From: a virus
Taxonomy: Duplodnaviria > Heunggongvirae > Uroviricota > Caudoviricetes
IMG/VR virus record: IMGVR_UViG_2850784384_000005
Length of the DNA stretch: 17,981 nucleotides
Direction: 5' to 3' (one strand)
In this document: positions 12,548 to 13,563 of the stretch, one piece after another
How the letters are laid out: every line of letters starts with the position of its first letter
How positions within the stretch are numbered: position 1 is the stretch's first letter
The notes under the pieces: generated by a model
Databases searched by the model: none
The model's input: only the letters and a program-made list of their open reading frames with translations
Told to the model about the DNA's origin: nothing
Made by a program: the position numbers and the translations under genes

Positions 12548-12596
12548 TATTTTTATTCTCCGGTGTGTTGTTCTTTATATCGGTAATGACTCCAAC

Positions 12597-13100
12597 TTAC
12601 TGATAGTGTTTTATGTTCAGATAATGCCCGATGACCTTGTCATGCAGCTCCACCGATTTTGAGAACGACAGTGACTTCCGTACCAGCCTTGCCAGATGTT
12701 GTCTCAGATTCAGATTATGTCGCTCAATGCGCTGAGTGTAACGCTTGCTGATAACGTGCAGCTTTCCCTTCAGGCGTGATTCATACAGCGGCCAGCCATC
12801 CGTCATCCATACCACGACCTCAAAGGCCGACAGCAGGCTCAGAAGACGCTCCAGTGTGGCCAGAGTGCGTTCACCGAAGACGTGCGCCACAACCGTCCTC
12901 CGTATCCTGTCATACGCGTAAAACAGCCAGCGCTGACGTGATTTAGCACCGACGTAGCCCCAATGTTCGTCCATTTCAGCGCAGACAATCACATCACTGC
13001 CCGGTTGTATGCGCGAGGTTACCGACTGCGGCCTGAGTTTTTTAAGTGACGTAAAACCGTGTTGAGGCCAACGCCCATAATGCGTGCACTGGCGCGACAT
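12597..13100 (-). CDS. insB: IS1 InsB (transposase catalytic part; the InsAB' fusion is made by -1 frameshift)
   Basis: 167 aa, near-identical to InsB as I recall it. The A6C frameshift motif TTAAAAAAC is present near 13030-13040. Confidence 0.9.
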
Positions 13101-13294
13101 CCGACGCCATTCATGGCCATATCAATGATTTTCTGGTGCGTACCGGGCTGAGAGGCGGTGTAAGTGAACTGTAGTTGCCATGTTTTACGGCAATGAGAGC
13201 AGAGATAGCGCTGATGTCCGGCAGTGCTTTTGCCGTTACGCACCACGCCTTCAGTAGCGGAGCAGGAAGGACATCTGATGGAAATGGAAGCCAC
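13019..13294 (-). CDS. insA: IS1 InsA
   Basis: 91 aa with a zinc-finger start ([28 protein letters not shown]). Confidence 0.9.
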
Positions 13295-13344
13295 GCAAGC
13301 ACCTTAAAATCACCATCATACACTAAATCAGTAAGTTGGCAGCA

Positions 13345-13563
13345 TTACCCTTTATATCTGTCGTGCAATAGATCTATTTCTTGCAGTTCCATTATTACAG
13401 GCTCAAGAAGCGTTATTAATGCCGTGGCAATTCTTGATTTTTGTTTGTCGCGTTCATTGTCGCCAAGTGTTTCAAGCCATATGCGCAATATTTCCAGCAT
13501 GTTTTCACTGTGAGAAAGTGCAAGAAATGCGCGGTCTATTGTTTCGTGGTAAATATCACGCAT
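13345..13563 (-). pseudogene. Small replication-module gene with its 3' end altered by IS1
   Basis: The last two codons and the stop are supplied by IS1 end sequence. Removing IS1 and one repeat copy restores a 78-aa ORF ending ...KEQHTGE with its stop at 12553-12555. Confidence 0.4.

Follow-up and report, generated by a model that had tools for sequence, protein, structure and literature searches.

IS1 is the main contributor to insertion-sequence (IS) insertions in Shigella, where shared ancestral sites are found together with lineage-specific ones (PMC7373316), and the chromosome of S. flexneri M90T carries 109 copies of IS1 and 21 copies of IS4 (PMC7132871). The genome degradation driven by these elements is marked by IS1 as the most abundant IS and by parallel hits in the same genes (PMC7373316; PMC7132871). 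Among phage satellites, the description of the capsid-forming family of chromosomal islands inducible by phages (cf-PICIs) mentions related elements in S. flexneri (10.1101/2022.09.08.507074). Here, we analyze an IS1 element in a satellite of this kind, carried on a 17,981-nucleotide stretch of viral DNA (IMG/VR record IMGVR_UViG_2850784384_000005), the whole of which we call the window. We found an intact IS1 in the 3′ end of a 77-residue gene, between small upstream genes and a coupled DUF4222/primase pair, in a cf-PICI that is decaying. We think it likely that this insertion added a further, nearly neutral step to the IS-driven decay, since the island had lost the ability to make capsid before IS1 arrived. 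On the best reading, IS1 did not kill the island and does not serve as a regulatory device. Given the abundance of IS1 in S. flexneri, an IS1 copy in a dead satellite is expected, and the locus is one example of the Shigella pattern with no difference from it. Among the genomes compared, the insertion is specific to one lineage.

The loci used for comparison are labeled L001 (E. coli O39:NM F8704-2), L005 (CP034060.1), L010 (E. coli eco-241, NZ_CP053662.1), L012 (E. coli MFDS1006657), L013 (S. flexneri ERR1363994), L014 (S. flexneri GCA_026062535.1), L019 (S. flexneri CP026810.1), and L025 (S. flexneri JARGEV010000001.1). Site A denotes the IS1 site in the window, and site B a separate IS1 site in L019 and L025. 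The parts of the insertion at site A are as follows.

12573–12581: left copy of the target-site duplication, CTTTATATC, which the empty sites of L013, L014, and L001 contain just once
13350–13358: right copy of the target-site duplication, CTTTATATC, a perfect match to the left copy
12582–13349, minus strand: complete IS1 of 768 bp, defined by a repeat scan, open reading frames (ORFs), and profile matches, with its left inverted repeat (IRL) on the 13349 side and its right inverted repeat (IRR) on the 12582 side
12582–12604: IRR from the repeat scan, the end facing the DUF4222 and primase genes
13327–13349: IRL from the repeat scan, containing the TAA that now terminates a 72-residue gene
13019–13294, minus strand: intact insA, 91 residues with a GTG start, from ORF and NCBIfam evidence
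12597–13100, minus strand: insB′ frame, a 167-residue ORF from ORF and NCBIfam evidence, translated only after a frameshift
13037–13043, minus strand: motif A6C (AAAAAAC in minus-strand reading) for the programmed –1 frameshift, read from the sequence, at IS1 nucleotide 307

Direct proof of insertion comes from near-identical alleles with a single 9-mer at the empty site. L013 and L014, which we reached by searching with a 77-residue relative of the truncated gene, have this island in an identical chromosomal position (pepT-roxA-int...), with both flanks 99.9% identical to the window and without IS1. Their alignments to the two flanks overlap by exactly 9 bp, and each contains one uninterrupted copy of the 9-mer. 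E. coli F8704-2 likewise has an uninterrupted site that corresponds to the joined flanks with one 9-mer. For one specified pair of positions, the probability that 9 bp match by chance is 4^-9, or ~4e-6. The initial annotation of the window had called an IS1 with a 9-bp duplication at 12573–13358 and had suggested comparison with IS1-free relatives; this comparison, the 768-bp length, and the perfect repeat uphold the call, and its coordinates are exact.

The element itself has the features of the IS1 family found in Shigella and E. coli. Its terminal inverted repeats extend for 23 nt in the repeat scan, are 87% complementary, read GGTAATGACTCC.../...GGCAGCATTACC, and share with iso-IS1 elements a beginning of GGTAATG; the full imperfect arms are GGTAATGACTCCAACTTACTGAT and ATCAGTAAGTTGGCAGCATTACC. 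NCBIfam profile NF033558 (IS1 family transposase) matched both ORFs, with 89 bits over profile positions 1–81 and 148 bits over positions 75–199, and the Pfam domains Zn_ribbon_InsA, HTH_Tnp_IS1, and DDE_Tnp_IS1 matched the transposase of the same-site copy in L003. The window copy is 99.7–99.9% identical to annotated IS1 copies, which occur in thousands of E. coli records. Among 5,426 complete E. coli genomes, 4,971 contained matches, at 74,835 places in all, of which the best was 99.9% identical; in many E. coli records the best IS1 copy was 90–95% identical to the window isoform. In length, repeats, insA/insB′ organization, A6C motif, weak promoter-like site in IRL, 9-bp duplication of an AT-rich target, and multicopy status, the window copy agrees with the family and shows no structural difference from it, the GTG start of insA being a trait of the window isoform. 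This complete IS1 is apparently functional, and its intact ORFs and ends make transposition activity plausible. The feature is already known, being annotated as IS1 transposase in public records, and reveals no new mechanism. An S. flexneri genome holds about a hundred copies of IS1, and this one has little significance beyond annotation.

By gene content and position, the host island is a cf-PICI of the EcCIEDL933 type located between roxA and phoQ in S. flexneri. The window begins in phoQ, and roxA and pepT lie beyond its other end. Island genes include int, alpA, the DUF4222/primase pair, genes for an HK97-type capsid, S78 protease, portal, head completion protein, connector, and HNH protein, terS, and terL, together with a divergent YlcI/YnfO-like gene and Icd-like and other small genes. 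A Phage_integrase domain was found in the island integrase, whose gene is frameshifted; the AlpA homolog is 100% identical to a helix-turn-helix protein of L012 and carries PF05930 in L002. The intact relative in L012, which spans ~14.8 kb at the same roxA/phoQ site, carries only these PICI genes and none for tail or lysis proteins. Like EcCIEDL933, the S. flexneri island has int, alpA, primase with iterons, its own head genes, and terS/terL, and lacks tail and lysis genes. It differs from EcCIEDL933 by degradation, with lesions in the capsid gene, terS, the integrase gene, and a G8 tract and with insertions of IS1 and IS4; its capsid gene and terS are pseudogenes. Its early region is mosaic relative to that of L012. 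Over 10.6 kb, the window matches CP034060.1 (S. flexneri FDAARGOS_535) at 100% identity, and no identical island was found in complete E. coli genomes, where the best early-region match was 94.7% identical. The lesions other than IS1, which show in comparison with L012 and further relatives, are listed here.

7969–7971, minus strand: TGG-to-TGA change (W276*) in the major capsid gene (7639–8796), also present in IS1-free L013 and L014
about 4534/4535: 97-bp deletion by which terS, compared with that of E. coli MFDS1006657, lacks its start codon and the region before it
4234–4236: premature stop E108* in terS
13788–13795: tract of eight G residues on the coding strand (G8) versus seven (G7), which splits a ~150-residue PHROG_2512 gene upstream in the same string
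about 17963–17981 and beyond the window (L005 1332–1601): integrase frameshift after about residue 90, giving ORFs of 103 and 325 residues
14845–16270: complete IS4 of 1426 bp with a 13-bp duplication, CTCCATTTCGGGG, between alpA and the YlcI-like region

The distribution of these lesions among alleles orders the events. First, the capsid stop and the G8 tract are already present in IS1-free alleles, which places at least these two defects before the arrival of IS1. G8 occurs in the window and in IS1-free L013, L014, and L016, whereas L015 and L020 have G7; the split PHROG_2512 gene leaves a 73-residue product and a remnant (ORFs 13778–14041 and 13633–13833), and the tract could be either a fixed lesion or one prone to slippage. 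Second, IS1 is present in L002–L009 and absent from L013 and L014, in both of which the integrase is intact (409 residues); L006 carries a further integrase break. Third, IS4 is confined to L005 and the window, being absent from seven other IS1-bearing loci and from L013 and L014. On this evidence, the capsid stop and G8 frameshift came first, IS1 and the integrase frameshift followed, and IS4 came last. Counts of collection blocks, which are rough only, agree with this order, rising from 697 for the 72-residue protein to 1585 for the capsid fragment and 11509 for the exact DUF4222 protein. IS1 had initially been described as a second independent inactivating event in the island. Its independence from the other lesions is confirmed by the genomes that contain IS1 without IS4. 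The count was too low, as at least six other lesions are present (W276*, the terS deletion, E108*, G8, the integrase frameshift, and IS4), and the implied order, with IS4 before IS1, is contradicted by the wider distribution of IS1. The lesions predict that this copy of the island would be unable to transfer, and their ordered series shows how a capsid-forming phage satellite decayed step by step in Shigella.

IS1 altered the end of one gene and left those downstream of it intact. The genes next to the insertion are as follows.

13345–13563, minus strand: truncated small gene, 72 residues, PHROG_2196 (unknown function), with an ancestral form of 77 residues and a stop codon now in IRL
12553–12572, minus strand: orphaned 3′ end of the 77-residue gene (EQHTGE codons and stop), carrying the GGAG Shine-Dalgarno (SD) sequence of DUF4222
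12248–12547, minus strand: DUF4222 gene, 99 residues, starting 34 nt downstream of IS1, with a stop codon that overlaps the primase start (ATGA)
10503–12251, minus strand: primase/helicase, 582 residues, ORF intact, with D5_N, DUF5906, Pox_D5, and P4-family primase C-terminal domain matches

In the reconstructed ancestor and in real homologs, the upstream protein ends ...DRYKEQHTGE*, and in the window it ends ...DRYKG*, a single glycine replacing the last six residues. The change from ...KEQHTGE to ...KG is as initially annotated; the ancestral length given there, 78 residues, counts the stop codon, and the protein has 77. The PHROG_2196 match spans positions 1–71 of a 74-position profile, nearly all of which precedes the lost tail, and the 72-residue protein itself is probably little affected. 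The database entry for this protein is named MULTISPECIES [Shigella] and occurs on 574 contigs. The placement of IS1 between the small upstream genes and the 99-residue/primase pair, and the ATGA overlap of that pair, were also confirmed. Ancestrally, the stop codon of the 77-residue gene stood 5 nt before the DUF4222 ATG. IS1 leaves the GGAG sequence and the DUF4222 and primase ORFs intact, and it makes little difference to how accessible the SD and AUG of DUF4222 are predicted to be. On this prediction, we rejected the idea that IS1 sequence masks the ribosome-binding site of DUF4222. A 583-residue "DNA primase [Shigella flexneri]" entry falls in the 90% cluster of the 99-residue DUF4222 protein and may be a fusion or a mis-call.

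Classical genetics showed strong, Rho-dependent polarity for IS1 insertions of both orientations. As in the polar insertions of gal and lac, the window IS1 sits in a packed, co-directional gene string with a long untranslated stretch, and the genes downstream of it have no visible promoter of their own; the differences are that polarity here is something we infer and that the untranslated RNA is G-rich. The string is closely spaced or overlapping (a 5-nt ancestral gap and the ATGA overlap), which fits a single transcription unit, and this tight spacing is retained in relatives with a different upstream gene. It probably starts near the YlcI-like gene, the "Arc-proximal" position of the initial annotation, where two features overlap.

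14296–14325, minus strand: candidate gene-string promoter (TTGACA, 18 nt, TAATGT), picked by eye and not reported by the promoter scan
14319–14498, plus strand: 59-residue YlcI/YnfO-like gene, initially called Arc, divergent from the gene string, with a weak NCBIfam match below the cut-off

The minus-strand TTGACA, within 14190–14330, overlaps the start codon of the YlcI-like gene, whose homolog in L012 is annotated YlcI/YnfO. The divergent Icd-like/YlcI-like control region at 14190–14330 also contains, on the plus strand at 14232–14249, a GC-rich hairpin and, after it, a run of T.

On the mechanism that we propose, ribosomes translating the truncated gene would stop in IRL and could re-initiate on insA. 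Beyond the insA stop codon, 471 nt that are normally untranslated precede the DUF4222 ATG. Transcription from the upstream inducible promoter would enter IS1 and mostly be lost inside it, and DUF4222 and primase would then receive only weak constitutive read-through. We regard it as rather likely, as the initial annotation had expected, that induced expression of the primase is substantially reduced by IS1. A terminator within IS1 was reportedly described by Hubner, Iida and Arber in 1987 (cited in PMC12095673).

Several observations weigh against this expectation. Our scan detected no intrinsic terminator-like site on the transcribed strand inside IS1. The untranslated insB′ sense RNA is G-rich, with a C/G ratio below 1, and composition alone does not predict a Rho loading site where one is needed. 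A search for a C-rich Rho-loading region in this RNA found none, and the sole C-rich patch lies inside translated insA. In E. coli ST131, co-oriented IS1 copies upstream of afaA, osmB, and ugd respectively raised, lowered, and left unchanged the transcription of these genes (PMC8764528). Reporters placed after insAB′ were expressed (PMC12428005), from which we expect that transcription in part continues as far as the IRR end. Transcripts that pass through should also be translated, since the insertion does not change how accessible the DUF4222 SD and AUG are predicted to be. Finally, the gene-string promoter named here is a candidate, and promoters that depend on AlpA may differ from the sigma-70 consensus. 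Near-isogenic natural alleles with and without IS1 (FDAARGOS_535 versus GCA_026062535.1) offer a possible test of IS1 polarity in its native context.

A different outcome would follow if IS1 supplied a promoter. From the IRR end or by read-through from the IS1 promoter, P(IS1), the element could make DUF4222 and primase constitutive, in which case the module would have been rewired rather than silenced. The IS1 inverted repeat carries an outward –35 element and can form hybrid promoters (PMC8764528; PMC9330008), and both of these published properties speak for rewiring here. Co-orientation of IS1 with the island gene string (both on the minus strand) would let P(IS1) transcripts run out of IRR, and the SD, the ATG, both ORFs, and their predicted accessibility are as expected for genes that could still be expressed. 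A promoter scan of IS1 and its junction returned the IRL site and one match at nine of 12 positions, and no strong site between IS1 and DUF4222.

12714–12742, minus strand: promoter-like GTTACA-17-CATAAT (9/12), inside insB′, from the promoter scan, at chance level
13315–13342, minus strand: promoter-like CTGCCA-16-TATGAT in IRL, from the scan, at the position of the known weak P(IS1)

The first of these points toward DUF4222, as a rewired module would need, but six such sites were found versus 3.0 ± 1.4 expected from shuffles, and the internal match is at chance level. The second is described as "extremely weak" and is autorepressed by InsA, with outside transcription reading into IS1 (PMC12428005); moreover, a genome with ~109 IS1 copies would be expected to supply InsA in trans. 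Formation of a hybrid promoter requires an optimally placed –10 element (PMC8764528). At the IRR junction, the –35 TTGGAG was tried with –10 candidates at 16–18 nt, which read GAACAA, AACAAC, or ACAACA and match the consensus at only one to three of six positions. A TATAAA inside the duplication was also tried as a –10 element and rejected, having no acceptable –35. Taken with the published need for an optimal –10, these results make constitutive rewiring unlikely.

The insertion could instead have been selected, if uncoupling of primase from induction immobilizes or silences the satellite and removes a replication burden or a toxic product. The point in favor of selection, and against a near-neutral event, is recurrence: three independent IS1 insertions, at site A, site B, and a DUF4222 site, fall within ~1.1 kb of window-equivalent sequence. 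At site B, IS1 lies in the 5′ end of the same 77-residue gene (1511–2278 in both L019 and L025), co-oriented with the gene string and flanked by the duplication CGAAACAAT, the empty window equivalent being 13538–13546; site A is empty in these loci. The third IS1, at 4101–4868 in L010 (E. coli eco-241), lies in a related PICI, where it interrupts DUF4222; it is oppositely oriented and has the duplication CTGGTCGCG. The eco-241 island also has IS200C beside an alpA-like gene.

Four considerations reduce the force of this recurrence. First, the island was already capsid-less before the hit at site A, leaving little mobility to select against. Second, IS1 prefers AT-rich targets, and the sites fit this preference: among 50-bp windows of the island, site A ranks in the top 4% for AT-richness (96th percentile) and site B in the top 12% (88th percentile). 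Third, a genome has ~109 copies of IS1, numerous sites in dispensable mobile DNA are lineage-specific, and a few repeated hits are expected post hoc. Fourth, most assemblies with the exact DUF4222 protein are without the site-A allele (697 versus 11509 blocks). We therefore consider selection for loss of induction quite improbable. We give equally little credence to the broader proposal that this is a recurrent IS1 target, where selection favors disconnecting primase (domestication or silencing) or where, alternatively, co-orientation with an inducible operon couples the IS1 transposase to helper-phage induction. AT-rich sites in dispensable DNA make a hotspot in tolerated sequence the simplest reading.

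An assembly artifact, in which a repeat was collapsed or misplaced, has in its favor just the general difficulty of assembling a genome with ~100 IS1 copies and is excluded for practical purposes by identical occupied junctions, seen in five or more independent, complete chromosomes and also in numerous drafts whose contigs break inside IS1, together with the perfect duplication and the matching empty site.

Elsewhere in the window, searches for known structured RNAs and tRNA attachment sites found none, and one further island feature appears intact.

10258–10492: GGTAGACAG/GGTAGATAG iterons, densely packed and facing both ways, in a 288-bp gap downstream of primase

This iteron field is the probable replication origin of the island. 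A 198-residue ORF on the minus strand at 14198–14794, which reaches 248 residues in genomes lacking IS4, overlaps two opposite-strand genes (the YlcI-like gene and a second small one), has no family match, and is probably not a real gene.

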